From Candidatus Latescibacterota bacterium (GTDB lineage: Bacteria; Latescibacterota; UBA2968; UBA8231), in the NCBI GenBank assembly GCA_965197905.1, contig CBDAOB010000004.1:1812878-1876877 (forward strand): a stretch of DNA of 64,000 nt. The letters run 5' to 3'. The position numbers were made by a program, and so were the translations under genes. Position 1 is the first letter of the stretch. Each line of letters begins with the position of its first letter. The notes under the pieces are model-generated. The model made no database searches and had not been told where the DNA came from. It worked only from the letters and a program-made list of their open reading frames with translations. Positions 3,077 to 19,551 of the stretch are shown here, piece by piece.

Positions 3077-3163
3077 GCCGAAGTGGCGGAACTGGTAGAC
3101 GCGCTGGATTCAAAATCCAGTGGGGGCAACTCCGTGTGGGTTCGAGTCCCACCTTCGGCACCA
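3077..3163 (+). tRNA. tRNA-Leu (anticodon CAA), with 3' CCA encoded
   Basis: Cloverleaf: acceptor GCCGAAG/CTTCGGC, anticodon stem CTGGA/TCCAG with loop TTCAAAA (anticodon CAA), long variable arm typical of tRNA-Leu, T-arm GGTTCGAGTCC, discriminator A + CCA. Confidence 0.85.
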
Positions 3164-3324: not shown

Positions 3325-5622
3325 GTGGCATCATGCCTACGACGGCGGGAGGGACCTCTAACGAGGCCAGCGAACTTCCGCGTGTGCGGTCACGAAGAGC
3401 GCTCAAACCGAATCGCCTTGCTCCTGGCGGTCGTCATCTTCTGCGGGACCCCGTGTTGGAGCCAGATGATGACCGGCATCGTAACCGACACGGCAGGCGC
3501 CCCGGTTCGCGGAGCCCGGGTGGTCTTTGAGGAAGTTCCAGGGGGCGATCGATTCCTTTCGATCACCGGAGAGCAGGGCGCCTTCGCGACGAATCTCGCC
3601 TTGTCACCCACCGTGATCGCCACCAACGCGGAAGCCCGTCCATCGTCCGTCGCGCTTTACCAGAATCATCCAAATCCGTTCAATCCCGCCACCGTCATTG
3701 GTTTTTCACTCTCGCACGCGACTGCCACGCAGCTGGCCGTCTACAACATTCTCGGCCAACGGGTAAAAATTCTCGTCGACGACTGGCTGGCGCCGGGATT
3801 CTATGAGGCGACTTGGGACGGGACGAACCAGATTGGCGCAGGAGTGGCGGCCGGTGTCTATCTTTATCGTCTGGCGACGCCAACCTACGAAACATCTCGA
3901 AAAATGCTACTGCTGGATGGCACCGCCGCCGCCACCGGCGGCCGTGTGCAGGCGACAAAGCAGCTGCCGGCAGCGCGACGAGCACAGCAGCGGGTTTTCC
4001 AGGTCAGAGTGACCAGTGCTCGGATCGAACCCCACACAGTGGACCCCTTCGTAGTGGAGGACGATACAGCTCTGGAGATTGAGGTGGAGCGTCGTGGAAG
4101 GCAGCTGGTGGTGGAAGATATGGACGGCGACGGGCAATCAGACCTCCTCACCCTGCTGGATGGGGACGAAGCGCTGGAAACACACGTTCAGGATCTCGAC
4201 CTGAACCATCAATTGGACAGTTTTGTGTTTGTTCGCGAGCAGGTCGCTGCCTCGGGGGCGCTCGTAACCAGCGAGACCCGGATTGCGGAAACAACCGACA
4301 GCGTATGGGTCAGGTCGAGTTTTACGATCGAAGCCACCGGCATGGGACCCTCGGTGCTGAGCTTTCGCCTGCAGCCGAAAGAAAGTGTCCTCAGCAGTCT
4401 GGATCTTGAGGACCCGGAGCGAGTCATCCGAGAGGCGTCCAGTCTCGTACCTAGTATCGTGGCCGCCGACAACGGGTGGTTGCAGCTGCAAATTCCGAAC
4501 GTCTTGGCGCCGGACGCGCACCAGATCGATTACTTCGGCGGGCCGCAGATCACCGTTCTCGAAGCGGATTCCGTGATCCAATGGTCTTTCCGCGACGAGG
4601 CTCGCCGCGATGTGGAGTATGCGGTGGCGGCGTTGGAAGGGACCGCATCAGGTCCAGAACCACCCATTACCTTCCAGATCGAGAGCAGCTTCCCCCTCAG
4701 CCGGGACCATCTCCAGGTGCATGCAGTGTCTCCCGAGGTGGGGGTGGTTGAACTGCAGCCGCTCCTGGAAGTCCAACGCCAACGACGTCTAAACGGAAGG
4801 GCGGTATGGGAGCACATGGTAGCGGTTAACTGGCAGCCCCCCAATAAGGGACTCTACCGTCTGATCCTGCGGATCGAGAAGGAGGGGGTGGTGGTGTCCG
4901 AAAGCCTGATATGGCATCTACAGACCCGACGACCGCCGCTGGAACTGAACCTGATTGGTGGAGCGCGGCACCTGATGGTGCACGTGGCGAGTGGTCCGTT
5001 TACCATGGGCTCCGACCGAGGATTCGCCAACGAGCGACCCCAGCACCGCGTGGAGCTAGAAGGGTTCTATCTCGACCGCACTGAAGTTACGAACAAGCAG
5101 TGGAACGCTTATGCTGCTTTTCTGGGCATTTCACTGAAGCAGGGGCTTGACGACCACCCTGTCGTAGACGTCAGCTGGTCTGAAGCCGCCGAGTACTGTC
5201 GCTGGGCGGGATTGCGATTGCCGACGGAGGCGGAGTGGGAAAAAGGAGCCCGTGGGGTCGAAGCCCGGACCTACCCGTGGGGGGAGTCGATCAGCGGCAG
5301 GCAGGCCAATTATGTTGACAGCGGCGATCCCTTCGACAACAGTACCACGCCCGTGGGACTCTTCCCCGACGGGAGTTCCCCTTCTGGAGCCCTGGACATG
5401 GCAGGGAACGTGTGGGAGTGGGTGGCGGATTGGTTCGACGAAAGGTATTACGCCTCCAGTCCGGCACGCAATCCACCAGGCCCTTCCAGTGGGCCGGGAA
5501 GGGTGCTTCGGGGGGGATCGTGGATAAACCTTCCGCTGAGTTTGCGGACCACCCATCGCGGCGGCCGGGAGCCGATGGATCGCACTGACTTCATCGGATT
5601 TCGCTGCGCCCGCGATGAATAG
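3325..5622 (+). CDS. Secreted protein with internal FlgD-Ig/T9SS-CTD-like beta-sandwich domain and C-terminal FGE-sulfatase (SUMF1/EgtB-type) domain
   Basis: N-terminal hydrophobic signal-like segment (start may be GTG ~3382). 'NHPNPFNPATVIGFSL...AVYNILGQRV...YEATWDGTNQIGAGVAAGVYLYRL' matches the por_Secre_tail/FlgD-Ig fold but lies near the N-terminus. C-terminus has FGE-sulfatase motifs 'RLPTEAEWEKGARG', 'YPWG', 'GNVWEWVADW', 'RVLRGGSW', 'GFRCARD'. Confidence 0.7.
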   Translation: MASCLRRREGPLTRPANFRVCGHEERSNRIALLLAVVIFCGTPCWSQMMTGIVTDTAGAPVRGARVVFEEVPGGDRFLSITGEQGAFATNLALSPTVIATNAEARPSSVALYQNHPNPFNPATVIGFSLSHATATQLAVYNILGQRVKILVDDWLAPGFYEATWDGTNQIGAGVAAGVYLYRLATPTYETSRKMLLLDGTAAATGGRVQATKQLPAARRAQQRVFQVRVTSARIEPHTVDPFVVEDDTALEIEVERRGRQLVVEDMDGDGQSDLLTLLDGDEALETHVQDLDLNHQLDSFVFVREQVAASGALVTSETRIAETTDSVWVRSSFTIEATGMGPSVLSFRLQPKESVLSSLDLEDPERVIREASSLVPSIVAADNGWLQLQIPNVLAPDAHQIDYFGGPQITVLEADSVIQWSFRDEARRDVEYAVAALEGTASGPEPPITFQIESSFPLSRDHLQVHAVSPEVGVVELQPLLEVQRQRRLNGRAVWEHMVAVNWQPPNKGLYRLILRIEKEGVVVSESLIWHLQTRRPPLELNLIGGARHLMVHVASGPFTMGSDRGFANERPQHRVELEGFYLDRTEVTNKQWNAYAAFLGISLKQGLDDHPVVDVSWSEAAEYCRWAGLRLPTEAEWEKGARGVEARTYPWGESISGRQANYVDSGDPFDNSTTPVGLFPDGSSPSGALDMAGNVWEWVADWFDERYYASSPARNPPGPSSGPGRVLRGGSWINLPLSLRTTHRGGREPMDRTDFIGFRCARDE

Positions 5623-5731
5623 GCGCGGCCTTCAACCGCGAAAAATTCCGACCTAAAACTGGCAATCCCTTGAACCGGTTGTGGTTACCCGAATCCCTGA
5701 CACCCACGCCCCATATATCACCAACTTTTTG

Positions 5732-5760
5732 TTGCTATGGGCGTATCAGCGCCGTATCAT
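5732..5760 (+). promoter_or_regulatory. Candidate sigma70-type promoter for the sigma-factor gene (TTGCTA-N17-TATCAT)
   Basis: Sits in an AT-rich 230-nt non-coding leader, spacing 17 nt, about 90 nt upstream of the ATG at 5853. Confidence 0.3.
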
Positions 5761-5852
5761 AACATTGATCTATTCACACCGAGTCGCGACCCATTCCGAC
5801 CGTCAGGGCCGCCGTTTCGGCACGTTCCTCAAAACCAAAGAATAGGGGCTAT

Positions 5853-6704
5853 ATGCAAGATAGCTTGGGTGATAGGGAAAGCACGTTGCGGCTCTATTTC
5901 GACGACATTGCCGATTCCAGACCGCTCTCGCGCGAGCGCGAGGTGGAGTTGTCGGCCCGAATACAGGACGGCGACATGCAGGCTCGGGATGAATTGGTCC
6001 AGGCAAATCTTCGTTTCGTGATAGACGTTGCCAAGAACTACCAGAATCGAGGGTTGCCGCTGGCGGATCTGATCAGTGCTGGAAATGTCGGACTGCTGAC
6101 CGCCGCCGACCGCTTTGACGGCACCAAAGGGTACAAATTCATCTCCTACGCGGTCTGGTGGATCAAACAGTCCATTCTGCAAACGATCGCCGAACATGCG
6201 CGTACCGTGCGACTGCCGATGAACAAGGTGAGCTTGCTCAAAGACATCTCCAAGACCTCTCGCCGCCTTGGTCAGGGCCGCGAAGCCGAACCCCGCATCG
6301 AAGAAATTGCCGCGGAGCTGGAGGTGCCCGCTGAGGAAGTGCTAGAAACCATGTTGAGCGCGCGCGCCGTGCGCTCGCTGGACGAATCCTTCGAAGAGGA
6401 TGATGAGCGCAATCTGTTGAACATCTTGGCCGATACTACCCAAGACAATCCTGACGCGGACGTGTTGTGTGAGTCCGCCAAAGATCAGTTGGAGAGCGTG
6501 CTCAACAGTCTGGATGAACGAGAGCTGCGCATTATCAGGCTCTATTTCGGGTTGGACGGTCACGAAGCTTTGACCCTGGAACAGATCGGCGATCTCATGG
6601 GTGTCACCCGTGAGCGCGTGCGTCAGATCAAGGAACGAGCGCTCAGTCGGCTCCGCCATCCTTCGCGGCATCAGTTCCTGCGCGCGCTTACAGAAGACGT
6701 ATAA
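5853..6704 (+). CDS. RNA polymerase sigma factor, sigma-70 family (group 3-like: FliA/WhiG/SigB class by size)
   Basis: 283 aa; region 1.2/2 'LYFDDI...ANLRFVIDVAKNYQNRGLPLADLISAGNVGLLTAADRFD...YKFISYAVWWIKQSI', region 3, and region 4 HTH 'LTLEQIGDLMGVTRERVRQIKERALSRLR'. Noticeably lower GC than neighbouring genes. Confidence 0.85.
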   Translation: MQDSLGDRESTLRLYFDDIADSRPLSREREVELSARIQDGDMQARDELVQANLRFVIDVAKNYQNRGLPLADLISAGNVGLLTAADRFDGTKGYKFISYAVWWIKQSILQTIAEHARTVRLPMNKVSLLKDISKTSRRLGQGREAEPRIEEIAAELEVPAEEVLETMLSARAVRSLDESFEEDDERNLLNILADTTQDNPDADVLCESAKDQLESVLNSLDERELRIIRLYFGLDGHEALTLEQIGDLMGVTRERVRQIKERALSRLRHPSRHQFLRALTEDV

Positions 6705-6751
6705 TCGAGGACTCGGCTCCGCCACGGACACTTCAATCTGTCTCTATCGAA

Positions 6752-6786
6752 ACGGCACTGCGGTTGCGACCGCGGTGCCGTTTTCC
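6752..6786 (+). terminator. Rho-independent terminator after the sigma-factor gene
   Basis: 13-bp stem ACGGCACTGCGGT / ACCGCGGTGCCGT (one mismatch), loop TGCG, followed by TTTTCC. Confidence 0.6.
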
Positions 6787-6807
6787 TTCTAACCCGCTGA
6801 CAATATC

Positions 6808-7704
6808 ATGGATCAGATTTCGATTCTTCTTTTGCTGGGAATCGTACTATTCCTCGCCTTACTCGCCTATTTCGTGCCGCTGGGGTTGTGGATCAGCGCG
6901 TTCTTCGCCGGGGTGAAGGTGCAGATCTTCAAAGACCTGGTGGGCATGCGACTGCGAAAGGTACCCCCCGTGGCCATTGTGCGTCCGAAAATCAGCGCCA
7001 CCAAAGCCGGGCTGCAGGTCGATCTGGACCGTATGGAAGCCCACTATCTGGCAGGCGGAAATGTCGAAGCGGTAATCCTGGCGTTGATCTCCGCAGATAA
7101 GGCAAATATAGATCTTGCCTTCGAGCGGGCAGCCAGCATCGACCTGGCCGGACGCGATGTGCTGGAAGCGGTCAAGGTCAGCGTCAACCCAAAGGTCATC
7201 AATACCCCGCTCATCACTGCGGTAGCCAAGGACGGTATTCAGGTGAGAGCAACCTGTCGCGTCACCGTGCGTGCCAATATCGATCGCTTGGTGGGAGGCG
7301 CCGGGGAAGAGACGATTATCGCCCGTGTCGGCGAGGGCATCATCACCAGTATCGGATCTTGCAACAGCCACAAACAGGTGCTGGAAAGCCCAGACCTGAT
7401 CTCGAAAACGGTGCTGGCCAAAGGACTGGATTCCGGTTCGGCCTTCGAGATTCTATCCATCGATATAGCGGATGTGGATGTGGGAGAGAATATCGGTGCC
7501 AGTCTGCAGACCGATCAGGCCGAGGCTGACTTAAAAATTGCTCGCGCCAAAGCGGAGGAGCGACGCGCGATGGCCGAGGCGCGTGAGCAGGAGATGACGG
7601 CGTTGGTGGAAGAGATGAGTGCGCGGGTCCGGGAAGCGGAAGCCGAGGTTCCCAAAGCCTTAGCCGAGGCGTTTCGTTCGGGCAACCTGGGCTCCTTGTC
7701 CTGA
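6808..7704 (+). CDS. floA: Flotillin-like protein FloA, second paralog (C-terminally truncated relative to copy 1)
   Basis: ~85% aa identity to the 1489..2478 product over 295 aa, but many synonymous nucleotide differences. Ends ...RSGNLGSLS* and lacks the conserved [10 protein letters not shown]... tail. No NfeD partner genes adjacent. Confidence 0.8.
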
Positions 7705-7734
7705 TCTCGTCGGTCAATCCAGGGTTTCGGGAGA

Positions 7735-9504
7735 TTATTCGCGTACTACAGCCAGGGTGCGCTGATAGGTGCGGCCATTGGCTTCTAGGACGTAATAATA
7801 GACACCGCTGGCGACGGCTTCTCCATCCTGATTGGTTCCGTCCCAGGTGGCCGCAAAAGAACGTGCCGAGCGCTGGCCCTGTTCCAGCACACGAACCAGT
7901 TCCCCCGTTGCTGAAAAGATCGATATCCTGGCGTCGTCGCTGGCTTCGTCCAGTGCGTACGGGATTAAGGTTGTTTCGAGTCCGTGAATTCGGAACGGGT
8001 TTGGTCGATTTTGTTCCAAACGAAATACCTGCGAGTCGGTGCCACCCCCCAGAAGGTTGGGATCGTACTCGGCGGCCACATTGTATTCGAAACCGGCGCC
8101 GGACTGCTCAAGGCTGCTGAGAACGACAACGATCTCGTCAAACTGGTCCCAATCCTGGATCTCGACTCTGTTCGCATCGGCGTCACGAATCTCGACGGCG
8201 TCCCGCGAAATCAACAGCAGTTGTCGTTTCCAGTTTCCCTCTTCCGTATTTAGTTCGAGAGCCACACCCCCGCTTTGCAGCTGCGGGTCCAGCTTCAAGT
8301 AAGCACTTCCCGTGTGATCCACCTGGCCACTGTCGGCCACGGCGACTTTGGACGCGGTTCGCAGGGTTTGCGTCCGCACTTCGCCATACTTTTCGCCTTC
8401 GGAGTAGAACATGCCGGAACGGTGGTTGACCCCGGTGAAGTAATTCCACACGGCGTATTCCCCTATGGCCGCCGCCAACCCGCCGGGAATCCACTGGCGA
8501 ATGGCGCGCTCGAAATTTACCAGGCGAGCGTGATTGCTGACGGCCATCTCGTCCCACACCAACCGAATCAAATCGCGACCAAAACGCTGATCGAGAAAAT
8601 GTGCGAAAAGGGCGCTTCCGTAGATGCGCGTTTCCACGGTGAAGTTTCCACTTCCCAACGCGCGCTCGGGCCGGCGGAGCACACTGGGCACGTACTGCAA
8701 GTAGTCGTCCACTTCGGGGTAGGCCACCTCCTCCATCCAGGTTGCCGACGCCTCCTGCCACCACACTCCGTTTCTCCCGGCGTAGTAGGAGAACTGTACC
8801 CCGTGAAAGAATTCATGTGCCAGGGTGACGTGCAGGGCATCCAATCCGCGGGTCTGAACATATACGGGATCGGTAAAATTGTTGTCGATCTCGAAATAGA
8901 CCGGCGTCGTATTCCCAGAGAGCTCGGGGAAGGCATAGCCGTACACTCCGGAGCCGCTCAAGTCAGTCAGATACACATCGTATTCGTTTCCGCCGCCGAC
9001 GCTGCCGTCTACTAATGGAGCCCGATACCCAAGGTCCACCACCTCAAGTTGCCAGGAGCGTTCCAATGTGGCTGCCGTCTCATCTATATAGTCCGGTATC
9101 GCGTTGTCATCCTCGTCACTGGGATCTACGCCGTGGCGACCCTCCACGTCGTAGTGCAGGCGAAAACGACCGGAGGCGGTCACCAGACTGTTCGCTCTCG
9201 ACGGGCGCTGCAAAGTGCGGGCGAGTTTCGCCCGAAACGAGACACTCAGCTCCGGCGCCGCCTGTTGAGCAGCGACGAGGGCAGGGGTGCCACAACGCGG
9301 GTGCAGGTTCGTCGGGGACGGACGAAACGCCTGCGGCAGGGAATCCGGGTCACGGACAGCGTAGACTTCGTACAGAAGGGCGGTCTCGTAATCCAAAACT
9401 CCGGATTCGAAGGCTTCGCTTACCAGTGTGCCCGCATGGGCGGGGGCACCCAAACTTCCCAGGCAAAAGCTGCAAACAACAAGGGGTCGAAACACGTGCA
9501 CCAA
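7735..9504 (-). CDS. Secreted zinc metalloprotease (HExxH) with C-terminal T9SS-type sorting domain
   Basis: Signal peptide MVHVFRPLVVCSFCLGSLGAPAHA; 'VTLAHEFFHGVQFSYY' HExxH zinc-binding motif. C-terminal ~90 aa 'NRPNPFRIHGLETTL...SIFSATGELVRVL...ATWDGTNQDGEAVASGVYYYVL' matches the por_Secre_tail/FlgD-Ig CTD pattern. Confidence 0.65.
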   Translation of the reverse strand: MVHVFRPLVVCSFCLGSLGAPAHAGTLVSEAFESGVLDYETALLYEVYAVRDPDSLPQAFRPSPTNLHPRCGTPALVAAQQAAPELSVSFRAKLARTLQRPSRANSLVTASGRFRLHYDVEGRHGVDPSDEDDNAIPDYIDETAATLERSWQLEVVDLGYRAPLVDGSVGGGNEYDVYLTDLSGSGVYGYAFPELSGNTTPVYFEIDNNFTDPVYVQTRGLDALHVTLAHEFFHGVQFSYYAGRNGVWWQEASATWMEEVAYPEVDDYLQYVPSVLRRPERALGSGNFTVETRIYGSALFAHFLDQRFGRDLIRLVWDEMAVSNHARLVNFERAIRQWIPGGLAAAIGEYAVWNYFTGVNHRSGMFYSEGEKYGEVRTQTLRTASKVAVADSGQVDHTGSAYLKLDPQLQSGGVALELNTEEGNWKRQLLLISRDAVEIRDADANRVEIQDWDQFDEIVVVLSSLEQSGAGFEYNVAAEYDPNLLGGGTDSQVFRLEQNRPNPFRIHGLETTLIPYALDEASDDARISIFSATGELVRVLEQGQRSARSFAATWDGTNQDGEAVASGVYYYVLEANGRTYQRTLAVVRE

Positions 9505-9609
9505 TCTACTCCGATCGATAACCAGCCGAAAGATATCCGCTGCGAGCCCGGCGCCGTTGATGTATGTTAAAGGCTACACCGAGCGGCCACAGCGCCGCCT
9601 CGCGGACAA

Positions 9610-10437
9610 ATGCACAAACAGACGATGACCAAAGCGCGATCGGTGTTTCTGATCGCCGCCTTCTGCAGCATAGGGTGGTTTTGTTCAAACTCTCCCAAAG
9701 CGGACGAACCTGAGAAGAGTCCGGTTCCCCCGCCTATGGAGAATCTGACGCCGGTGTACTCCTACCGCGTGGTGGATTCCTACACCCACGACCTGCGGGC
9801 GTTCACCCAGGGGCTGGCGATCGCAAACGGAGCACTCTACGAAAGTACAGGGCTGTATGGCGAGTCCACATTGCGCCGGGTCGATCTGGCAACGGGCGAG
9901 GTCCTGCAAATCCGTTCCCTTCCCGATTCCCTATTCGGGGAAGGGATCGCCGTTTGGGAAGAGCGGATTATTCAGGTTACCTGGCGCTCGCGCATGGGGT
10001 TGGTGTACGATCGTGACTCCTTCGAGTTGTTGCAGCAGTTCCGTTACGACACCGAGGGGTGGGGATTAACCCATGACGGCGACCGCCTGATACTCAGCGA
10101 CGGTAGCTCCACACTCTATTTCTTGGACCCGAATTCGTTCGCCGAACTCGGGCGCTTGGCGGTACACGACAGCGACGGCCCCGTGACCCTACTGAACGAA
10201 TTGGAGTATGTCGGCGGCGAGGTGTTCGCAAACATCCTGCAATCAGACCGCATCGCTCGCATCGACCCAAAAAGCGGCAAGGTGACCGGGTGGATCGACC
10301 TGGAGGGCCTCCTTGCCGAGGTTCGAGGGTCCAACGCCGTGGGGGTTTTGAATGGGATCGCCTATGACGAAGCCCGTAACAGACTCTATGTAACGGGGAA
10401 GAACTGGCCGCAGCTTTTCGAGATCGAGCTGCGGTGA
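9610..10437 (+). CDS. Glutaminyl-peptide cyclotransferase (glutamine cyclotransferase, beta-propeller type), lipoprotein
   Basis: Lipobox-like signal (LIAAFCSIGWFCSNS); motifs 'HDLRAFTQGL', 'TGLYGESTLRRVDL.TGEVL', 'GEGIA..', 'YVTGKNWPQLFEI' typical of the plant/bacterial QC family (PF05096). Confidence 0.75.
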   Translation: MHKQTMTKARSVFLIAAFCSIGWFCSNSPKADEPEKSPVPPPMENLTPVYSYRVVDSYTHDLRAFTQGLAIANGALYESTGLYGESTLRRVDLATGEVLQIRSLPDSLFGEGIAVWEERIIQVTWRSRMGLVYDRDSFELLQQFRYDTEGWGLTHDGDRLILSDGSSTLYFLDPNSFAELGRLAVHDSDGPVTLLNELEYVGGEVFANILQSDRIARIDPKSGKVTGWIDLEGLLAEVRGSNAVGVLNGIAYDEARNRLYVTGKNWPQLFEIELR

Positions 10438-10441
10438 TCGG

Positions 10442-11353
10442 TTAGAGCAAAGCCTCGGCGTCTTCCGCTTCCCTGAGGTTCAACAAGGGTCCGCGCACGC
10501 CACGCTCGATTTTCGCAAACGCGTCGTGATTGTGGATGCTTTCGTAGTTGTTGCTTGAGACGTAGAACCAGCGGATGCGGTCTGTTTCCAGCAAAGCGAT
10601 GGTTTCAGCCGACACGTCGCGCACGATATCCTCGACAAATTTCGGATTGTCGAAGGCTTTCTCGGTCACGTGTTTTTCGTCGGGACGCTTCAGGATCGGA
10701 TAGAGCTGGCACGAAGCACTGCGCTCGGCGATATCGATTAGGTCTTCGAACCAGATGAACGCCTCATCGTTGGGGCGCACGTCCACCTTGATTTCCGAGC
10801 GCTGATTGTGGGCGCCGTAGTCGCTGATCTCCTTGCTGCACGGACAGCAACTGGCGGCGTTTACGCGGACGCCGACCATCTTGTCGTACAAACCGTCTTT
10901 CGACATCATCGCGCGGAATATGCAGTCGTAGTCCAAAAGTCCACTTTCGCCGCTCACCGGAGCCGGTCGGCAGAGAAAGATCGGAAACTCCATGTCCAAA
11001 TAGGCCTCTTCCGCGCCCAACAGTCGCAGCATCTCTTCCAGCACAATATGCACGTTGTCGGGCCGGAAGTGATGGTTCTGTTCATTGAGGGCTATCATGA
11101 ACCGCGACATGTGCGTCCCCTTCTGGTCGTGAGGCAAACGCACCGTCATGGATACGTTGGCAACGGTGTTGAATTCTCCGCCGCCACGAAGGGGCAATGT
11201 TAGGGGGTAGCGAACGTTCGAGACACCGACCTGGTCGATGTCGATGCCTCGTTGATCCGGGCTGTTCTGAATGTCCGGTAACACGTTAGTTTTCGTAGGA
11301 TTAGGTATCGCCAAGCTCGACTGCAATGTATGTTTGGACCCCATGCAAGTCAA
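10442..11353 (-). CDS. folE2: GTP cyclohydrolase FolE2/MptA (GTP cyclohydrolase I type 2)
   Basis: 'PDIQNSPDQRGIDIDQVGV', 'SMTVRLPHDQKGTHMSRF', 'CCPCSKEISDYGAHNQRS' match the FolE2 (DUF198) signature regions. The true start may be a few codons in. Confidence 0.7.
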   Translation of the reverse strand: MTCMGSKHTLQSSLAIPNPTKTNVLPDIQNSPDQRGIDIDQVGVSNVRYPLTLPLRGGGEFNTVANVSMTVRLPHDQKGTHMSRFMIALNEQNHHFRPDNVHIVLEEMLRLLGAEEAYLDMEFPIFLCRPAPVSGESGLLDYDCIFRAMMSKDGLYDKMVGVRVNAASCCPCSKEISDYGAHNQRSEIKVDVRPNDEAFIWFEDLIDIAERSASCQLYPILKRPDEKHVTEKAFDNPKFVEDIVRDVSAETIALLETDRIRWFYVSSNNYESIHNHDAFAKIERGVRGPLLNLREAEDAEALL

Positions 11354-11395
11354 TGGAATGGCGGCGACCGAGAGCCACGACCGGAGGAGGTGGAT

Positions 11396-11998
11396 GTGGT
11401 AACGCTTTCAAAGATTTACACGAAGTCAGGAGATGGCGGAACGACTCGATTGGGCAATGGTGAGGAGGTTTCGAAAACCCATCCCCGGGTAGAGGCCTAC
11501 GGCGCCGTGGATGAGTTGAACGCCGTGTTGGGTCTGGTGTTGACACAACCGTTGCCCGCGGAGCAAAAAGAAGTGCTACAACTCACCCAAAACGACCTCT
11601 TCGACCTCGGTGCCGACCTCTGTCATCCGCAGAAGCAGGCTCGCGAGGAGGCGTCCGCGTTGCGCCTAGGCCACGATCAAGTTCAAAGGCTCGAATCCAC
11701 CATCGACCACCTGAACGAGTCCCTTCAGCCCTTGCGCAGCTTCGTTTTGCCCGGCGGCACCGTGGCGGCGACCTGGTTGCACCTTGCTCGCACGGTGTGC
11801 CGCCGGGCCGAGCGCAGAGTCTGGGGTCTCGCCGAGGATGAAAGCGTCAACGAAGAGGTCCCGCGCTACCTGAATCGACTCTCTGACCTGCTCTTCGTAA
11901 TGGCTAGGCATCATAACCACGCGGCGTCCGGTGACGTGCTGTGGGAGCCGGCAAAGGGCCGAATCGAGGGCACCAATGAGACCTCCCAAACCGGATGA
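11396..11998 (+). CDS. ATP:cob(I)alamin adenosyltransferase, PduO-type (MMAB family)
   Basis: 'KIYTKSGDGGTTRLGNGEEVSK..PRVEAYGAVDELNA' matches the PduO-type ATR N-terminus. The ORF track starts at 11330, but a GGAGGAGG RBS at 11383..11390 followed by GTG at 11396 fits the family start. Confidence 0.65.
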   Translation: MVTLSKIYTKSGDGGTTRLGNGEEVSKTHPRVEAYGAVDELNAVLGLVLTQPLPAEQKEVLQLTQNDLFDLGADLCHPQKQAREEASALRLGHDQVQRLESTIDHLNESLQPLRSFVLPGGTVAATWLHLARTVCRRAERRVWGLAEDESVNEEVPRYLNRLSDLLFVMARHHNHAASGDVLWEPAKGRIEGTNETSQTG

Positions 11999-12089
11999 GG
12001 AGCCGCTGCCAACTTGTGGTTTGCACTAGGCTTCCTTACTATATTTTCCTTAAACCGGCAGGCACTTTTTCTACGGTATGAACTGAGTC

Positions 12090-13331
12090 ATGGCGCGGGT
12101 CTTGGTAGTTGAGCGTAGCCCAAAGATCGGGAAGCTCGTAGCCGATCAGTTGCAGCAAAACGGCTTCGACGCCACGGATGTGCGCCATGGGGCGGAAGCC
12201 GCCCTCGAGCTTCGTCGGCAGGAGTGCGACCTCATCCTATTGGACAACCAGGTGCCGATGGGTGGGGTAAAAACCGCCCGCATTCTGCGCCTGCACCCAA
12301 AATTCAACACGATACCGATCATTCTGGGCTTACCCACCAACAAGGACGAAGCCCGCAAGGTAATTACCGACAGCAACGAAGTCGGGGTGAGCAATTTCCT
12401 GCTCAAGCCGTTCACCATGGCGGCCCTGAAAAAGAAGCTGGACGATGTGCTCGGCGACGAAACTCCGGCGGAGAAACCCACCTTCATGGAGATTCGTGAC
12501 GAGCTGCGGAACCTCAGCAATCTGCCGGCGATGCCGGAAGCCCACAGCAAGCTGCTGGCCCTGCTCAGCAAGGCCGACGACGAAGTGGATATGAACGCCG
12601 TCGCCAAGACCCTAGAGATGGATGCAGCGATGTCGGCCAAGGTCATGCGCACCTGCCGCTCGGCGTTCTTCGGATTTCAAGGCAGCATGATGAAACAAGC
12701 GGTGGCTTTTCTGGGGGTTGCGGTGATTCGTCAAATCGTGCAGTCGGCGGTTATCGTCAGCATGTTCGATGACGAGAAAGAGGGAGATTCCAGCCTGAGC
12801 ATGCAAGACCTGTGGCGTCATTCCATGGCAACCGGTTTGGCTATGGAAGTGATCGGAAAAGCGGACAAGAAAAAAACCCACTTCCTTCTGGGTGTTCTGC
12901 ACGATGTGGGAAAGGCGGTGTTCAAGTTTCGCTTCTCCGAGCATTTTGCCTCGGTTCTCGATCTCGTGGCGAAGGAAGAGATCTCTATGTACAAGGCGGA
13001 GCAGGAGCTCCTGGGCATCACCCACGCCGAGTGCGGGGGGGAGTTGGCGGTGCACTGGGATCTTCCGGGTGAGGTGCGTACCGCTATAGCCGCACACCAT
13101 ACCCCCGCGGAGACAACGCAACACAAGCGATTGGCCGCCATGGTCCATATCGCCGATATCGCCGTCCGCACCATGAAAATTGGCTACGCCGGCGATGATC
13201 TGATTCCGCCGATGGATCCATATGCGGCCAGGCTGCAGAAGAGCGTCGAGGAGATCACCGCCCAGCGCGATCAGATCGTCGGTCAGATCGACGCCATGGT
13301 GGGCGGGTCAGACGGGGAGGCAGAGAATTAG
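12090..13331 (+). CDS. Response regulator, receiver (REC) domain fused to HDOD output domain
   Basis: N-terminal REC domain (phospho-acceptor Asp in 'LILLDNQVPMGG', K in 'FLLKPF'). C-terminal HDOD domain ('LPAMPEAHSKLLALL', 'VLHDVGK', 'HAECGGELAVHWDLP', 'AIAAHH'). No cognate histidine kinase adjacent. Confidence 0.75.
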   Translation: MARVLVVERSPKIGKLVADQLQQNGFDATDVRHGAEAALELRRQECDLILLDNQVPMGGVKTARILRLHPKFNTIPIILGLPTNKDEARKVITDSNEVGVSNFLLKPFTMAALKKKLDDVLGDETPAEKPTFMEIRDELRNLSNLPAMPEAHSKLLALLSKADDEVDMNAVAKTLEMDAAMSAKVMRTCRSAFFGFQGSMMKQAVAFLGVAVIRQIVQSAVIVSMFDDEKEGDSSLSMQDLWRHSMATGLAMEVIGKADKKKTHFLLGVLHDVGKAVFKFRFSEHFASVLDLVAKEEISMYKAEQELLGITHAECGGELAVHWDLPGEVRTAIAAHHTPAETTQHKRLAAMVHIADIAVRTMKIGYAGDDLIPPMDPYAARLQKSVEEITAQRDQIVGQIDAMVGGSDGEAEN

Positions 13332-13368
13332 CCAGGCTTCTCCAAGCCTCACAGTCGATCTGCGAACC

Positions 13369-13400
13369 GGCTTACCGCACCACTGTGTAGGCCTTTTTTT
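13369..13400 (+). terminator. Rho-independent terminator after the REC-HDOD gene
   Basis: Stem GGCUUAC/GUAGGCC (7 bp, one G.U) with an 11-nt loop, followed by a T7 tract (13394..13400). Confidence 0.5.
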
Positions 13401-13971
13401 GTGCCTCCTGTTACACACCGGGGTAGGGGCGCAGTACGAAGCCGAAGTCACAGCAGAGCGCCAGTCGAATTTCTACCTCTCCGCTGGCCTAGGCCTGCTC
13501 ACCGTAGGCACTAAGGCAGGCATTGCCATTCCGGCCGGATTCATGGCGGTGCTTTCCCCTTACCGGTTGCTGGTTTCCGCCAGCGCGATCGATATCGGGC
13601 TTCTGGAAGGAGACTCCAAGGATCCGCGGTACGAGCGTTTATTCGTGCCGGGGGGCTCCCAAGCCTGCCTGGATCGAGAGACCGGTTTTCTTGTTTCGGA
13701 TTTTCGTTGTTCTGGAGGGACCGTCCTCCGAGGCTCGACCGGTGCCGATCTCAGCGTCATACCCATAGAGAATCTTTGGCTCGGAAACCAACCGGGCAAC
13801 CTGTTCACCGGTGTCGGCTTTCGTGCCTTCAACCCGAAGACGGCCTACGTCACCTTCGGCCTGGTGTTCAATTCGCAGACGGAAAAAGCAGGCGGATTCA
13901 AGGTCAATATCGGCAGCGACTACGTGTTTGTCGGTATCCTCGGAGGGTTCAACCTACGCCGATGGTTCTGA
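13399..13971 (+). CDS. Hypothetical protein, possible small outer-membrane beta-barrel (start uncertain)
   Basis: Alternating hydrophobic beta-strand pattern and C-terminal '...FNLRRWF' aromatic terminus. The ORF in the track (13222) overlaps the upstream gene and its terminator, so the real start must be downstream (TTG 13399 or later). No clean signal peptide seen. Confidence 0.3.
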   Translation: MCLLLHTGVGAQYEAEVTAERQSNFYLSAGLGLLTVGTKAGIAIPAGFMAVLSPYRLLVSASAIDIGLLEGDSKDPRYERLFVPGGSQACLDRETGFLVSDFRCSGGTVLRGSTGADLSVIPIENLWLGNQPGNLFTGVGFRAFNPKTAYVTFGLVFNSQTEKAGGFKVNIGSDYVFVGILGGFNLRRWF

Positions 13972-13990
13972 ACGTGCCCTCGCCGTTGTG

Positions 13991-15050
13991 ATGGCGGGTC
14001 GCATCGCCTGCCGCCGGTACCGCTGCGCACGCAACATCGCCTTCGCCGCCTTGAGCCTGCTGTTCGCCGCAGACGGAAACAGCCAGACGCTTCCGCCGGA
14101 GACCCACCCCAGCCTGTTGTTTACCGCCGCTGAGCTACCTCTACTAAAGAGCCGCATCGCGCGCGCTCCGTACTCGAGTTGGTGGCAAACGACGCTGCAA
14201 CGCGCGCAAACCGTTCCCGATACCGTAACCGTAGAGCGATCGAAGGCCCGTTACGCCAAGAGCCTGGCGTTTGCCTATCTCATGACCGACGACGAGAGCT
14301 TCGCACGGTTACGATATGTTGCACGAGTTCGTGAGCGCGGATGCTGCCTCACTGGCCGCGGTGCGCGGTCTCCTCGCCGAGGAAGCGGCGCGGTTGATGA
14401 AGGGTATTGTCGTGCAGGAGATCAACCTCGGTTTCGTGACCATCAAGCTGCGTCTGCACGAGACGCCCCACATCGACAACTGGCATCTGCGGGCGTACGG
14501 TGGGCTGGGGTTTGCCGCCCTGGCACTGGCGGATCATCCCGGCGTCGACGACAAAACCCCCCAAGATTGGTCTGACCGGGCAGTGGATCTGTCCAGCCGC
14601 ACCCTGGAGTATCAGATAGACCCCGTGGACGGCGGCTACGCCGAGGGTCCGTTCTACAGCCGCTACGCCGCCGATGTTTACCTGCCATACTTGATCGCCA
14701 TGAAACGTCTCACCGGACTTGATCTCATCGACGCGCCGATCGTGCGCAAGATGCACGACTGGTCGGTAAACATCCGCTTGCCCAATGGACGCCGACCAAA
14801 CATCGACGACGGCCACCTGGACGAATTCTACGGTCATTACCTGGCCGCTGTCGACGACGACGGTCCGGTGCATCTTTGGGACTGGCAAAACAACGAGACC
14901 GGGCTGTACGTGCGGGAGTTTTCAGAGCTGGATGCTATTGCGCTCTACGACGACCGCATCGAACCCCAGGAGCCCACGCAAGGACCGACGATCTTCATGC
15001 CGGAGGCCGGAGATGCGGTCTTCCGCAACGACTGGTCGGCCGACGGGATC
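13991..15050 (+). CDS. Heparinase II/III-like polysaccharide lyase, exon 1 (signal peptide + N-terminal alpha-toroid part); apparent +1 frameshift near 14286-14316
   Basis: Signal peptide MAGRIACRRYRCARNIAFAALSLLFAADG. Coding potential switches from frame 2 (13991..~14310) to frame 0 (14286..15050) inside an overlap of two track ORFs. Exon ends ...FRNDWSADGI immediately before GTGCG at 15051. Confidence 0.45.
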
Positions 15051-17191
15051 GTGCGCCACGAGGCGCCAGAGAACCGGGTGGGATGCAAGGACCCACCAAC
15101 GGGCTGTCGCAGCAGCCCGTTGAAGCTGGAGGCAGCCTGACCCTGGGAGCGCAGGGGAAGGTGGAAGCAGCCTCGACAACGACAGAGTGGAGTGGCACCT
15201 CCAGACACTCCACGTCTGGCAAGCAAGACGGAATGGTGTAACCCGAAGTGAACCAGTGATGGAACCCCCTTTAGCGGCCCGCCAACCCAAACCTGGTGGA
15301 TAAGGGTTGGTACGCAACGCACGTGGTCGGATATATGACCGACTGCGACTCTGGGGAGGTGTGATACCCACCGAAGCAGAGGCCTTGGAGAATGCCTGCG
15401 GCGTACCCAAGGCGAAGTTGCAGGGGAAAAGCTGGGCACCTCCCCCGTCAAACGGTTCATGGTGAACGTGGGAACCGAGCCGAGTCCGACCGTTATCGGG
15501 GCAGCGCGCTGTCCGCTGTGGGGCTTGGCAAGGGACGGAGCCTCTGTAGTAGTCCGCGAGCGGGAAAGCCGCTTACATGGCGAAGGGAGGCAGCAAGTTG
15601 CGCAGTGGGGTACTGGAAAAACAGGAGGACGCCGGTGAATGCCAGCGCTTCGTGGCCCGAGGCAGAACAAGCCCGTAATCGAGTACTGGAAATCCAGACC
15701 AAACTGCACCGTTGGGCTGTAGAGGATCGAAGCAAGTGCTTCGACGACCTGTTCAACCTGGTGTGTGACCCGGCGTTTTTGAGTGTAGCCTGGCGTCGGG
15801 TGCGCAGCAACAAGGGTGCTCGTTCGGCCGGAGTGGACGGACAAACGGCCTACTCTGTGGAGACGGAACGCGGCGAGGAGGCCTTTCTCGCCGAGGTGCG
15901 GGTTGATCTGAAGACCCGCAGTTTCCGGCCTCTGCCCGTACGCGAGCGGTTGATTCCGAAACCTGGCACAACGAAGAAGCGCCGGCTCGGCATCCCAACC
16001 GCTCGGGACCGAGTGGTCCAAGCCGCACTCAAGCTGGTGCTCGAACCGATCTTCGAAGCGGACTTCAAGCCGTGCTCCTACGGCTTCCGCCCGAATCGGC
16101 GGGCTCAGGACGCCATCGCCGAGATTCATCAATTCTGCTCCCGCTCTTATGAGTGGGTGGTGGAGGGCGATATCCGTGCTTGTTTCGATGAGATTGATCA
16201 CGCAGCCCTCTTGGACCGCGTGCGTCGACGTATCGGTGATAAGCATGTTCTGAGGCTTGTAAAAGCGTTCTGCAAGGCCGGTGTCCTCACGGAACAATCG
16301 GTGTTGCAAGAAAGCACTTCGGGCACTCCGCAAGGCGGTATTCTCTCACCGCTGGTGGCAAATATCGCCTTATCCGTCCTCGACGATTATTTCACTGAGG
16401 TCTGGAGAAAGGTGGGCGCTACCTCCAGTGCGCGACAAGCGCATCGGCGAAAGGGGCTACCGACTTGTCGGCTTGTCCGTTACGCTGACGATTTCGTGCT
16501 GCTGGTGGCGGGCACCGAAGCTGCAGCGTATGACCTGCGCGACCAAGCGGGGGTGACTCTCACCCCCATGGGTCTGCACCTGTCGGAGACGAAGACCGCC
16601 ATCACGCACATCAGCCGTGGCTTCGATTTCCTGGGTTTTCGCATTCAGAAGCGACGGAAACCGGGCCCGGTTGGCGCACGCATCTATACGTGGCCAAGAA
16701 AGGAATCTCTGGCCCGGTTGAAGAGCACGGTGCGCGCAGTCACGAGAACGGGTCGGCAGAGGCCGTTGAAGAGCCTTCTGCGCCAACTCAATCCGGTGTT
16801 GCGGGGGTGGGCCAACTACTTTCAGTACGGGGTGTCGAAGGCCACTTTCAACTACGTGCGGGGCTTCACTTGGCGCCGCGTAGTGCATTGGCTGCGCCGC
16901 AAGCACCCGCGCTTTAATTGGAGGAAGCTGAAACGCCGCTACCTGCCAGGATGGTGGCCCACCGAGGACGGGATTGCTCTTTACAACGTCGGCGAAGTAG
17001 CAGTGACTCGTTACCGCTATCGATCGGCGCGGATCCCTTCTCCCTGGCCTGCGACAACCGGATGAGACTCTGCGGTCACACGGCACCTTGTGGAGAGCCG
17101 GATGCGTGGTAACGCGCACGTCCGGTTCGGAGGGCGGGCCGGAGAAACCCACATCACGCGTGTGGCGCAGGGCGCTCCGGTCCGACCCTAC
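15051..17191 (+). mobile_element. Group II intron (bacterial, En-minus RT type) interrupting the lyase gene
   Basis: 5' end GTGCGCC (consensus GUGYG). Domain IV carries the RT/maturase ORF. Domain V at 17095..17128 is GAGCCGGATGCGTG-GTAA-CGCGCACGTCCGGTTC (AGC triad, GNRA loop, 2-nt bulge). Domain VI at 17131..17190 has bulged A at 17185 and ends ...CCUAC. The 3' boundary is ambiguous between 17191 and 17194 because of a TACTAC repeat; either choice keeps the host frame. Confidence 0.8.
15635..17065 (+). CDS. Group II intron-encoded reverse transcriptase/maturase (no endonuclease domain)
   Basis: RT blocks including 'RLVRYADDFVLLV' (YADD), 'FLGF', and maturase/X domain 'LLRQLNPVLRGWANYFQYG'; ends right after the thumb domain with no HNH. 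AGGAGG RBS at 15623..15628 followed by GTG at 15635; the track ORF extends spuriously upstream to 15392. Confidence 0.8.
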   Translation: MNASASWPEAEQARNRVLEIQTKLHRWAVEDRSKCFDDLFNLVCDPAFLSVAWRRVRSNKGARSAGVDGQTAYSVETERGEEAFLAEVRVDLKTRSFRPLPVRERLIPKPGTTKKRRLGIPTARDRVVQAALKLVLEPIFEADFKPCSYGFRPNRRAQDAIAEIHQFCSRSYEWVVEGDIRACFDEIDHAALLDRVRRRIGDKHVLRLVKAFCKAGVLTEQSVLQESTSGTPQGGILSPLVANIALSVLDDYFTEVWRKVGATSSARQAHRRKGLPTCRLVRYADDFVLLVAGTEAAAYDLRDQAGVTLTPMGLHLSETKTAITHISRGFDFLGFRIQKRRKPGPVGARIYTWPRKESLARLKSTVRAVTRTGRQRPLKSLLRQLNPVLRGWANYFQYGVSKATFNYVRGFTWRRVVHWLRRKHPRFNWRKLKRRYLPGWWPTEDGIALYNVGEVAVTRYRYRSARIPSPWPATTG

Positions 17192-18571
17192 TACATGCTG
17201 CTGCGCGGCGAGCATGGTCTCACCCGCAACCGGGGACTGGCGCACGAGCATGCCGACGAGACCAGCTTCATCATCTACGCTTTTGGAGAGATGCTGGCTG
17301 TGGATGCGGGGTATATCAACTTCACCAACCACCACAAGGTCAATGCTGGTCGCAATCACAACGTCATCCTGGTGGACGGTGAAGGGCCGCCGCTGTTCGT
17401 GGATCCGTTGATCGGCGAGTCCATCGGCGGCGGCAACAACGCGTTTATCGAGGAGTTTTTCAGCACCGAGCACCAGGACTACGCGGAAGTGCGCGCCCAG
17501 TACGGCGGCGTCGACCTGCGGCGGCGGGTGATGTTTCCCGGAAAACAGTATTTCATTCTGGCCGATGAGGTGCGCGATCTCGAGGTCCACCAGTACGAAT
17601 GGCGTCTCCACGGAAACGGGGGTGGAGACACCGGTGCTGACTATTCCCGTGCCGGCCCCTTGGCGCGCTGGGTCCGACCCAAAGCACAACTGGTCGCCTT
17701 CGTCGTCCCCCAGGACGAACTCACGTTGGCCGAAGCCGACACCGTCCATTCCTTCACGTTTAGCCAGGAGAAAACCCATACCTTTCTGCAGGCTCAGACC
17801 ACCGGTAGCAACGTGGAGTTTCTATCCGTATTGGTTCCCGGGGCAAGCGGAATGCCGATGCCCTCCTTCGATGTCGGCAGCGCAACCGGCGCCCAAGCTG
17901 TGCACATTGAAGGGGACGGATTCCGCGATCTGGCGTGGGTCGCCGAGCACGGCGCCGACTCCATTCTGGTCGAAGATCAAAGCGGCAGTGTCCGCACCGA
18001 CGCCCGCTTTGGACAGCTCCGCTACGAAGGCGATCTGTTGCGGTCTTACACGATTCAGGACGCCAGCTTTCTGCGCGTCGGGACGGAGGAGGTCTTCAGT
18101 GCCGCAGATACGGTCGATCTTTCCTTCAACTTCGACGAGGGTGGCCTACGGGGGTTTGTCGCGGCGGCGGACGGTGGGGTCGAGATCCTGATACCCGTGT
18201 CCGCTTCGGCGCTGGATTCGTTGCAATTCGACGGGACGCTGCTTGACAGTAGTCTCGCCGCGGGGCGACTGAGCCTGAGGATTGCCGGTGCAGGCCGTCT
18301 TGTGGTGCGTACCCAACCAACACCAGCGGACACCGTCGGAGGAGAGTCAAGCGGTCAGACGGCGGCAGCGGAGGAGGCGGGCTCTGCTGCCGAACCGGGG
18401 GATTTCGACCACAGCGGTCTGGTCGACCTGGAGGACTTCAGCTTGTGCGCCCAGGCATACGACTCCAACGCAACGACAGCGACGGCGACTTTCGATCTGA
18501 ACGACGACGGCAGGATAGATTTCGAGGATTTCTTCCTCTTTGCGGATCTCTTCCCGCAGTCCGCTCCGTAA
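17192..18571 (+). CDS. Heparinase II/III-like lyase, exon 2 (Hepar_II_III beta-sandwich domain + C-terminal dockerin-like repeats)
   Basis: 'HEHADETSFIIYAFGEMLAVDAGY' His/Asp signature of the Hepar_II_III domain. C-terminal 'DFDHSGLVDLEDF...FDLNDDGRIDFEDFFLFADLF' looks like two Ca-binding dockerin-type repeats. Frame is continuous with exon 1 once the intron is removed. Confidence 0.55.
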   Translation, partial: YMLLRGEHGLTRNRGLAHEHADETSFIIYAFGEMLAVDAGYINFTNHHKVNAGRNHNVILVDGEGPPLFVDPLIGESIGGGNNAFIEEFFSTEHQDYAEVRAQYGGVDLRRRVMFPGKQYFILADEVRDLEVHQYEWRLHGNGGGDTGADYSRAGPLARWVRPKAQLVAFVVPQDELTLAEADTVHSFTFSQEKTHTFLQAQTTGSNVEFLSVLVPGASGMPMPSFDVGSATGAQAVHIEGDGFRDLAWVAEHGADSILVEDQSGSVRTDARFGQLRYEGDLLRSYTIQDASFLRVGTEEVFSAADTVDLSFNFDEGGLRGFVAAADGGVEILIPVSASALDSLQFDGTLLDSSLAAGRLSLRIAGAGRLVVRTQPTPADTVGGESSGQTAAAEEAGSAAEPGDFDHSGLVDLEDFSLCAQAYDSNATTATATFDLNDDGRIDFEDFFLFADLFPQSAP

Positions 18572-18596
18572 CAACAGCTTCCCGGCGGAGTGACTG

Positions 18597-19049
18597 CTAC
18601 ACCGCGGTCATCGCGTAGTTCAGAATCTCCACCACCTGCGCTGGCTCGGAAGCTACCGCCTGTGCGGCGGCGTCGACCTCCTTTAGCGGGTGCCGAAGGT
18701 CAGGCGGATGCAGCACAATCAGCGGCTTGTTCAGGGCGAAGGCGTATCCGGCATCGAAAGCGGCATTCCACTGCCGGTACTCTTCGCCAAATTTCACCAC
18801 CACAACATCGCAATCGCGTATAAGCGTGCGCGTGCGAATGGCGTTGATCTTGCCCCCTTTGTGATCGGTCCAGAACGAATCCTCTTCGGGGCCGAGAATG
18901 TCGACACCGCAACCATCGCTGGCGCCATGGTCCATCACCGGCGCGAAGAACAGCACGTCGAGCTCTGCCTCCTCGGCGCCCTGAGTAATTTGCTGGCGCC
19001 AATCGCTGTGCACTTCGCCGGCCAGATAAACCTTCCATTGCTTTGACAT
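18597..19049 (-). CDS. YtoQ-family protein (nucleoside 2-deoxyribosyltransferase-like fold)
   Basis: 150 aa; 'KVYLAGEVHSDWRQQI', 'FFAPV.DHGASD', 'NAIRTRTLIRDCDVVVVKFGEEYRQWNAAFDAGYAFALNKPLIVLHPP' is collinear with the Bacillus YtoQ family. Confidence 0.7.
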   Translation of the reverse strand: MSKQWKVYLAGEVHSDWRQQITQGAEEAELDVLFFAPVMDHGASDGCGVDILGPEEDSFWTDHKGGKINAIRTRTLIRDCDVVVVKFGEEYRQWNAAFDAGYAFALNKPLIVLHPPDLRHPLKEVDAAAQAVASEPAQVVEILNYAMTAV

Positions 19050-19248
19050 CTCGCTCCCCCACGGTTTGGTTGTCGGCTGCCGGCATCGCGTCTATCGACG
19101 CGGCCGTGACGCTCGCATCGTCATTGTGCCGATACACGAAAAAAATAGTAGGATTCGGCTGTGAGTGGCGCAATTCTTCTTGCCGCTTACCGTTCGGCCT
19201 CCTATGTTCTGTGCATCGAATCAGGCGGTTTCATCAAGGAGGTCGGCG

Positions 19249-19551
19249 ATGAAGTCTGCAATCGAGCTGGCAATGGAAAAAGCGGATGGTGCAGTTGATG
19301 GTGACGACTACGTCAAATTAACTCCGGAACAGGTACAGGCTATTGATCAGGTGACGAAGGAGTACGAAGCCAAGTGGGCTGAGCAAGAGATCATGGTAAA
19401 GGGCAAGTTGGAAAAGATGCAACGGGAGGTCGATCCGCAGACCATGGCCGAGCATCAACGGCAGTTCCAGAACGAGATCAACCAGTTGCGCGAGCAGATA
19501 TTTACCGAACGCGACAGCAAGATCGAAAAGATTCGTCAACAAGCTACATAA
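19249..19551 (+). CDS. Hypothetical charged coiled-coil protein (~100 aa)
   Basis: GGAGG RBS 8 nt upstream of the ATG at 19249; highly charged K/E/Q-rich sequence. The track ORF starts earlier (19165) but lacks an RBS there. A hairpin plus T-tract lies downstream (~19572..19608). Confidence 0.45.
   Translation: MKSAIELAMEKADGAVDGDDYVKLTPEQVQAIDQVTKEYEAKWAEQEIMVKGKLEKMQREVDPQTMAEHQRQFQNEINQLREQIFTERDSKIEKIRQQAT

Follow-up and report, generated by a model that had tools for sequence, protein, structure and literature searches.

In a stretch of 64,000 nucleotides (nt) of Candidatus Latescibacterota DNA (GenBank assembly GCA_965197905.1, contig CBDAOB010000004.1, positions 1,812,878 to 1,876,877), referred to below as the window and numbered from its own first letter, the gene for a heparinase II/III-like polysaccharide lyase is interrupted by a complete group II intron of 2141 nt in sense orientation (15051-17191, + strand). 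The insertion falls between two codons (phase 0), with the GTGCGCC of the intron 5' end starting at 15051 directly 3' of an ATC (Ile) codon. Both boundaries agree with the group II consensus, with GUGCG at 15051-15055 (consensus GUGYG) and ...CCCUAC running up to 17191 (consensus AY). The Rfam model of domains V and VI (DV and DVI; RF00029, Intron_gpII) matches 17093-17191 on the + strand with 57.3 bits (gathering score 40, E = 1.3e-8), and this is its single match in the window. DV (17095-17128) is a 34-nt hairpin in which the AGC triad occupies 17096-17098, a CG at 17119-17120 is bulged and the GNRA-type loop, GUAA, lies at 17109-17112. In DVI (17132-17188) the branch-point candidate, A17185, is unpaired and stands 7 nt from the intron 3' end. 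A first-pass annotation made from the sequence alone had listed all parts of a group II intron here, among them GUGCGCC after a complete Ile codon, a textbook DV and a DVI with a bulged A, and every feature that it listed is found at these positions.

A protein search with the conceptually spliced lyase returned uninterrupted homologues, among them P0001 (98% identical, 846 amino acids (aa)) and P0002 (89%), whose loci (L001 and L002, respectively) are intron-less and syntenic with the window. Comparison with these empty sites by blastn defines the insertion as exactly 15051-17191, without target-site duplication; the alignment leaves a 1-nt ambiguity, as there is a C at both ends, which the GUGCG rule resolves. 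The intron-less loci read ...GACGGGATC/TACATGCTG... (the slash marks the insertion point here and below), and in the window the intron separates ...GACGGGATC from TACATG.... The second exon (17192-18571) runs to the stop codon and lies within a 96.7% identical alignment of L001 11161-13518 to window 17191-19547; the adjoining part of the first exon (14310-15050) aligns ungapped with L001 10421-11161 at 97.2% nucleotide identity. Splicing at 17191 gives ...DWSADGI/YMLLRGEHG..., with a translation that matches P0001 and has no insertion or deletion relative to the orthologues. The spacing at the junction is the same in the five homologues read (P0001-P0004 and P0255), as in DWSEDGIYMLLRGEHG (P0001) and DWSADGTYMLLRGEHG (P0255). 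The proposal that removal of the intron joins the lyase exons in frame is thus borne out. Of the two 3' ends that had been offered with it, 17191 is the one supported by the empty sites and by the alignment of the spliced product to its homologues, and 17194 is rejected, as it would remove a Tyr present in all five. The Pfam domain PF07940 (Hepar_II_III_C), which is also found in P0001, matches residues 226-441 of the spliced product with 50.4 bits (cut-off 24) and is unbroken over the junction at residue 245, in agreement with the predicted position of the junction in a heparinase II/III domain.

For comparative analysis of the ribozyme, scans with the intron-encoded protein (IEP) provided 80 loci from a genome collection and 80 from metagenomes (JGI), the latter with 56-69% protein identity and no relative closer than 69%. 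Almost all of the relatives from these scans conserve the first 16-18 nt of the intron as well as DV and DVI. Rfam at permissive thresholds over 14950-17300 returned DV/DVI-type models only and matched no group II D1-D4 family; domains I to III (DI-DIII) are therefore supported by our own alignment of the 5' 600 nt of 30 diverse members, from which a consensus was derived with RNAalifold. This consensus of DI, DII and DIII contains 149 pairs, 98 of which show compensatory double changes among the 30 relatives. The fraction of paired cells is 96.8%, compared with 83.5% in column shuffles, none of which (0 of 500) attains the observed fraction, and 31-46% with slid partners. The corresponding consensus of DV and DVI has 36 pairs (20 with compensatory changes; 97.2% of cells paired); the 14 pairs of DV are formed in 99.3% of cells, and compensatory changes occur at 8 of the 13 basal pairs of DVI and in the helices on either side of A17185. 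The DI-DIII structure on which the first-pass reading depended is consequently present.

In the window copy, letters are present for 135 of the consensus pairs, and 129 of these are formed. DI (15056-15471) is closed by a helix between 15056-15060 and 15467-15471, and DIII (15540-15591) comprises consensus helices 27-29, which are 99-100% paired, with compensatory changes at 8 of 15 pairs. DII (15472-15536) is shorter than in most relatives and accounts for the 14 consensus pairs missing from the window copy; it still folds as a single hairpin (-31.6 kcal/mol, z = -2.2), and the short form is common to all of the near-identical copies that are evidently mobile.

Domain IV carries an open reading frame (ORF) for a reverse transcriptase (RT)/maturase of 476 aa (15635-17065, + strand), which starts with GTG and is preceded, 6 nt upstream, by an AGGAGG Shine-Dalgarno sequence (15623-15628). 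This IEP scores 371 bits against the NCBI equivalog model TIGR04416 (group_II_RT_mat; cut-off 300) and also matches RVT_1 (PF00078, 2.9e-32) and the maturase domain GIIM (PF08388, 9.2e-22); its YADD motif is encoded at 16481-16492. The profile search of the IEP found no HNH or other endonuclease domain, and the protein stops about 40 aa past the X domain (GIIM), as expected from the earlier description of an RT/maturase with YADD and X domain and without HNH. We considered whether the ORF could encode a retron, defense-associated or other non-intron RT that merely lies within the gene. The IEP does give weak matches of 18-32 bits to such models (Drt3a, 32; retron St85 RT, 28; Drt2, 25.5); these are far below their cut-offs (200, 235 and 390, respectively, in an overall range of 200-600), compared with 371 over 300 for TIGR04416. 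Together with the GIIM domain, the Rfam match, the covarying RNA on its flanks and the fact that the whole 2141 nt forms a single precisely bounded unit, this leaves a non-intron RT with a negligible probability. The Rfam and TIGRFAM scores, the covariation and the empty-site comparison exclude chance, and the element is an intact endonuclease-less (En-minus) bacterial group II intron.

By pairwise similarity, as opposed to a tree, the IEP most resembles those of the 'g1' variety of En-minus introns: over 465 aa it is 52.5% identical to Rh.js.I1, a g1 reference, and its identity to Sr.me.I2 is 41%; identity to the other plasmid-borne introns listed, including the Sinorhizobium plasmid matches, is at most 39%. 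Table S2 of Toro & Martinez-Abarca 2013 (PMC3552965) describes g1 introns as mainly actinobacterial, 2160-2210 nt long and encoding RT-X proteins of about 477 aa. The intron in the window resembles these (references Rh.js.I1, Ca.ac.I1 and Sr.me.I2) in its RT-X-only protein (476 aa, compared with about 464-505 aa) and in its length (2141 nt). The nearest 160 relatives of its IEP are mostly from Actinomycetota, as is g1, and Rh.js.I1 also lies beside or inside a transposase gene, of the IS1380 family. It differs from g1 in its host, which is probably a member of Latescibacterota and not an actinobacterium, and in its short DII. A PDB sequence search with the IEP gave the T.el4h IIB maturase (6me0) as best match, which is not decisive for class.

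Two other assignments were tried and rejected. Group IIE/IIF introns (PMC3753933) share with the intron described here a compact IIB-like ribozyme (the RNA without the ORF is about 710 nt), an endonuclease-less protein and, possibly, an EBS2-IBS2 helix (exon- and intron-binding sites 2) that matters for homing instead of splicing. A 5-nt DV loop is described as an idiosyncrasy of IIE/IIF (PMC3753933); class E/F was rejected on account of the 4-nt GNRA loop of our DV and the closer similarity of the IEP to g1. Class C (IIC) introns have a small ribozyme without EBS2 and insert after terminator or attC hairpins with no sequence-defined site. This class is ruled out by the approximately 710 nt of non-ORF RNA, by the position of all copies inside coding sequence and by the 13-nt 5'-exon sequence that the copies have in common.

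The lyase gene itself begins further upstream than ATG 14316, the start that the first-pass annotation gave to exon 1. Its 5' segment (13991-14308, frame 2) starts at ATG 13991, encodes a signal-peptide-like N-terminus and is the same as the N-terminus of P0001 except for one residue; L001 1-10318 aligns by blastn with window 3980-14308. At 14309, blastn and protein comparison show a single T in place of 102 nt (L001 10319-10420, encoding RATELLLDMRFPPRGGDLGEPHNEGEVVALYAQA), and from 14310 onwards the gene continues in frame 0, so that the ORF from ATG 14316 is the part downstream of this lesion. The net loss of 101 nt is a frameshift about 740 nt upstream of the intron in a segment that is kept in both L001 and L002; no obvious direct repeat flanks it. 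A full-length protein of the 846-aa type therefore cannot be made from the assembled sequence, spliced or not, and the inference that expression of the lyase depends on splicing is not supported as it was stated. Apart from this lesion the gene looks selected until recently: over 2.4 kb the lyase exons have a dN/dS of 0.08 relative to L001, and they contain no further stop codon or frameshift. The lesion is for this reason either recent or a fault of assembly; most likely the gene has been recently inactivated, or the deletion is such a fault, and we give even weight to true inactivation of the host gene and to its opposite.

A functional lyase whose expression does depend on splicing, with the 101-nt deletion as an assembly or consensus artifact, would account for the complete phase-0 sense intron, for a spliced product that matches the orthologues and for the low dN/dS of the exons. 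It would also sit well with the many frameshifted homologues in long-read metagenome assemblies of this kind: the homologues P0257, P0258, P0259, P0260 and P0261 (ENA long-read assemblies) end early at what appear to be 1-nt frameshifts, from which it follows that indel errors are common in these assemblies. The lesion, a loss of 101 nt with one substituted base, is unlike the 1-2-nt homopolymer errors typical of long reads, and both related loci retain the deleted segment; we regard this alternative as rather unlikely. Exact look-ups of two window ORFs, made for the deletion in other assemblies, found neither on record. Divergence from L001 in sliding windows is mosaic throughout and shows no sharp change at 14309 of the kind expected at the edge of a recombination tract or chimera. 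Across window 3980-28454 the mosaic is strong, with as few as 0-15 and as many as over 70 differences per 500 nt, which suggests frequent recombination between strains of the population.

The usual surroundings of this intron are found elsewhere. P0121, a database protein that represents a 36-member cluster (at least 90% identity), has the same sequence as the IEP. From the contigs of this cluster, together with L003 of the genome scan, nine further copies of the intron could be read. In nine of nine, the 5' exon is a gene for a transposase of the IS256 family of insertion sequences (PF00872, Mutator). The cognate 5' exons end in ...TGGGC(C/G)GACGGGATC (W-A-D-G-I), and the 3' exon normally starts with TAC (Y). 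Including relatives with 76-88% identity, the intron is located in PF00872 genes at L163, L169, L172, L173, L170, L174, L175, L176, L177 and L003. The same WADGI/Y motif is used by L176 and L177 (76-77% IEP identity) and by the truncated 87% copies L174 and L175. To judge from these flanks, the normal homing site of the lineage is the ...W-A-D-G-I/Y... motif of IS256-family transposase genes. The copy at L163 differs from that in the window at 3 of 2141 nt (99.86% identical), all three silent in the IEP; the metagenome sample in which it was found also yielded L001, the lyase allele without the intron. Once the intron is removed, the L163 transposase is an intact 412-aa ORF covering PF00872 positions 24-376 of 379. 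Many near-identical copies at several loci differ by no more than 0.15%, and the intron is apparently still mobile. The search for further copies and for an intron-less site, suggested with the first-pass annotation, has thus produced both IS256 copies and the empty lyase loci L001 and L002. Within the 64-kb window there is no IS256 transposase, no donor IS256::intron copy and no further homing site with fewer than three mismatches.

Since related metagenomes contain many near-identical copies of this repeat, and the divergence of the window from L001 is mosaic, a multi-copy intron could have been mis-threaded into the lyase locus during assembly. Such a chimera would have to produce two junctions that are base-exact at the canonical GUGCG...AC boundary, between flanks of collinear lyase sequence, on the strength of only the 13 + 3 nt that the site has in common with other insertion sites, which is far too short to mislead an assembler. 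We consider it extremely improbable.

The lyase site and the IS256 site of L163 share 16 contiguous identical nt, GGCCGACGGGATC/TAC, encoding A-D-G-I-Y. The intron-less lyase alleles depart from this sequence, with GGAGGACGGGATC in L001 (S-E-D-G-I) and CTCGGACGGGATC in L002 (S-S-D-G-I). The differences fall in the IBS2 region, which is GGCCG in the invaded lyase, GGAGG in L001 and CTCGG in L002; among the lyase alleles compared, the window alone has the Ala codon (GCC) that completes the 16-nt mimic. Because the more distant homologue P0003 also has Ala at this variable position, a pre-existing Ala polymorphism is plausible. The perfect 16-nt match could also be read as a sign that the lyase site is a regular, recurrent homing site of the lineage and not an accidental mimic. 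The nine other readable copies, all in PF00872 transposase genes, argue otherwise, as do the 120 lyase homologues among the matches listed, which are full-length or nearly so, and the two intron-less nearest loci. When other lyase alleles interrupted by the intron were sought by protein search with the exon-1 read-through ORF, the matches were all frameshifted homologues; as P0001 was missed as well, the sensitivity of this search is doubtful. On this evidence a recurrent site is very unlikely.

Candidate pairings between intron and target were assigned on both sides of this sequence. IBS2 (GGCCG, 15038-15042, positions -13 to -9) is identical in the cognate IS256 sites and could form five Watson-Crick pairs with a putative EBS2 (CGGCC, 15278-15282), which lies in a variable loop between the conserved sequences CCCCUYAAG and ACCRGCU in the register of the relatives that target IS3 (assigned by eye); we hold this assignment with moderate confidence. 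EBS2-IBS2 is dispensable for splicing of IIE/IIF introns, and a role in homing has been suggested for it (PMC3753933); such a role would be consistent with the two bases of IBS2 at which the invaded and uninvaded alleles differ. IBS1 (GGGATC, 15045-15050, positions -6 to -1) is the same at all nine other readable insertion sites. DI contains no perfect 6-nt complement of GGGATC, and EBS1 was therefore located through relatives: in L010, L029, L006 and L059, a loop at about intron nt 313-325 complements, without a mismatch, the final 6-12 nt of the copy's own 5' exon. In the window this corresponds to GAUACCC (15363-15369), in the loop of the hairpin GGUG(UGAUACC)CACC (15359-15372). The stem of this hairpin covaries in the 76-77% relatives (GGUG/CACC and GGCG/CGCU), and both the loop UGAUACC and the IBS1 GGGAUC are kept in L176 and L177, at about 25% IEP divergence. 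A GGTATC (Gly-Ile) site would give perfect EBS1 pairing.

Taken together, these observations make it highly probable that the element is a group II intron that reached the lyase by ectopic retrohoming into a chance copy of its transposase homing site, which is also a simple explanation of its uncommon location. The intron ribonucleoprotein would have recognized the lyase site, a chance 16-nt mimic, through EBS2-IBS2 and EBS1-IBS1 pairing, and the intron RNA would then have reverse-spliced into the sense strand of DNA that was transiently single-stranded at a replication fork. Copying into cDNA was presumably primed by the nascent strand at the fork, as the IEP is without a nuclease; this step is modeled on work with RmInt1-type introns. 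The outcome would be a precise, phase-0 sense insertion that could potentially be spliced out of the mRNA. What the data show are the anatomy of the intron, its exact boundaries, the empty and cognate sites and the conserved RNA structure; we infer the retrohoming pathway, the present activity of the intron and the reality of the deletion. En-minus introns are expected to show a lagging-strand bias; the GC skew of the window is about zero and uninformative on the replication strand.

Several points weigh against this account. Co-conversion from a donor exon, instead of a polymorphism that was already there, may account for the two bases (-11 and -10) at which the site differs from L001. The EBS1-IBS1 pairing is imperfect, with five of six pairs and a G.A opposition at -4, or six pairs with A15366 bulged, which is unusual for a homing site; as it is conserved down to 76% IEP identity, the lineage seems to tolerate it. 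The EBS2 helix, at 5 bp of G and C, could be a chance pairing. Finally, the 101-nt deletion may be an assembly error, given how frequent frameshifted homologues are in the same kind of long-read assemblies. Should the last of these hold, the lyase would be a working gene that relies on the splicing of a recently escaped IS256-homing intron, the escape having been enabled by one strain-specific Ala codon (GCC) through which the 16-nt mimic became complete. We think this combination unlikely. If it were the case, the locus would be a natural snapshot of an endonuclease-less intron leaving mobile DNA for an ordinary enzyme gene, in a lineage that also tolerates a conserved EBS1-IBS1 mismatch or bulge.

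An experimentally studied parallel to the ectopic retrohoming proposed here is RmInt1 of Sinorhizobium meliloti (class D/IIB3), which homes to ISRm2011-2. Like the intron in the window, RmInt1 has an endonuclease-less RT/maturase and a natural homing site within an insertion-sequence transposase gene, and two reports (PMC1802570, PMC4181065) describe its occasional occurrence at ectopic sites similar to the natural one. It differs in its IEP class (the at most 39% identity of the Sinorhizobium plasmid matches) and insertion-sequence family, and its pathway has been experimentally demonstrated, whereas that of the window intron is deduced. The intron in recA of Geobacillus kaustophilus (Chee & Takami 2005, as cited by PMC7306698) is likewise in sense orientation and spliceable in a conserved, non-mobile gene. 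Unlike recA, the host gene here is an accessory polysaccharide lyase and not a housekeeping gene, and it carries a frameshifting deletion in addition; the origin of the insertion, from a lineage resident in insertion sequences by way of site mimicry, can be traced.

According to current thinking, bacterial group II introns persist because they hide in mobile elements and avoid host genes (PMC7306698, PMC4181065). The lyase locus is a base-resolution example of this rule being broken, and it comes with natural controls in the form of an empty allele (L001) and donor-type copies recovered from one and the same metagenome sample. For invasion, a chance match of 16 nt between the WADGIY motif of a transposase and SADGIY of an enzyme would have sufficed; the uninvaded close relatives differ at two IBS2 bases. 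The case is otherwise an ordinary one, a fresh copy of a known kind of retroelement, and the understanding of group II introns is unchanged by it. It does provide a defined set of targets for the poorly studied g1-like lineage, which would be useful if retargeting were wanted. It is also a warning for annotation, since the lyase shows up as three separate ORFs.

Some copies of the intron show features of their own. L003 (2471-4409; Candidatus Latescibacterota metagenome-assembled genome OZ244235.1) contains a degraded copy with 99-100% nucleotide identity that has lost two internal stretches (intron nt 68-115 and 1310-1450) and lies at an IS256 site with one IBS2 mismatch (GGCGG). At L168 and L171 (2417-4557 in each), near-identical copies have the same IS256-type transposase as 5' exon (ELVYAWADGI) and different 3' exons: another transposase in L168 (YFNVRLQP) and an unrelated ORF in L171 (FRPIAEWS). 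Intron copies may have recombined with one another here, or the intron may have made further ectopic insertions. The IS256::intron contigs of L168 and L170 (ENA ERZ25067264, ctg821425_32x_c, 52 kb, and ctg825192_30x_c, 61 kb) and of L174 (ctg350917_8x_c, 47 kb) bear names ending in '_c' and are possibly circular. L168 has RepA_C and ParA/CbiA-type genes and L170 has MazE/PemK-type toxin-antitoxin genes; these three contigs may be plasmids and a possible vehicle for spread of the intron.

Other clades at about 60% identity (L025-L082 and others) lie at conserved motifs that resemble other transposase families, the families being assigned by eye from the flanking translations: LWVxDI/TY (IS3-like), HWEGDL/I (IS30-like) and DPFHVV (ISL3-like). 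This pattern fits the view that introns outside class C 'hide' in mobile elements (PMC7306698). Some copies of these clades begin with GAGCG instead of GUGCG. The sole tRNA gene of the window, a tRNA-Leu (CAA), is located at 3077-3163 on the + strand.

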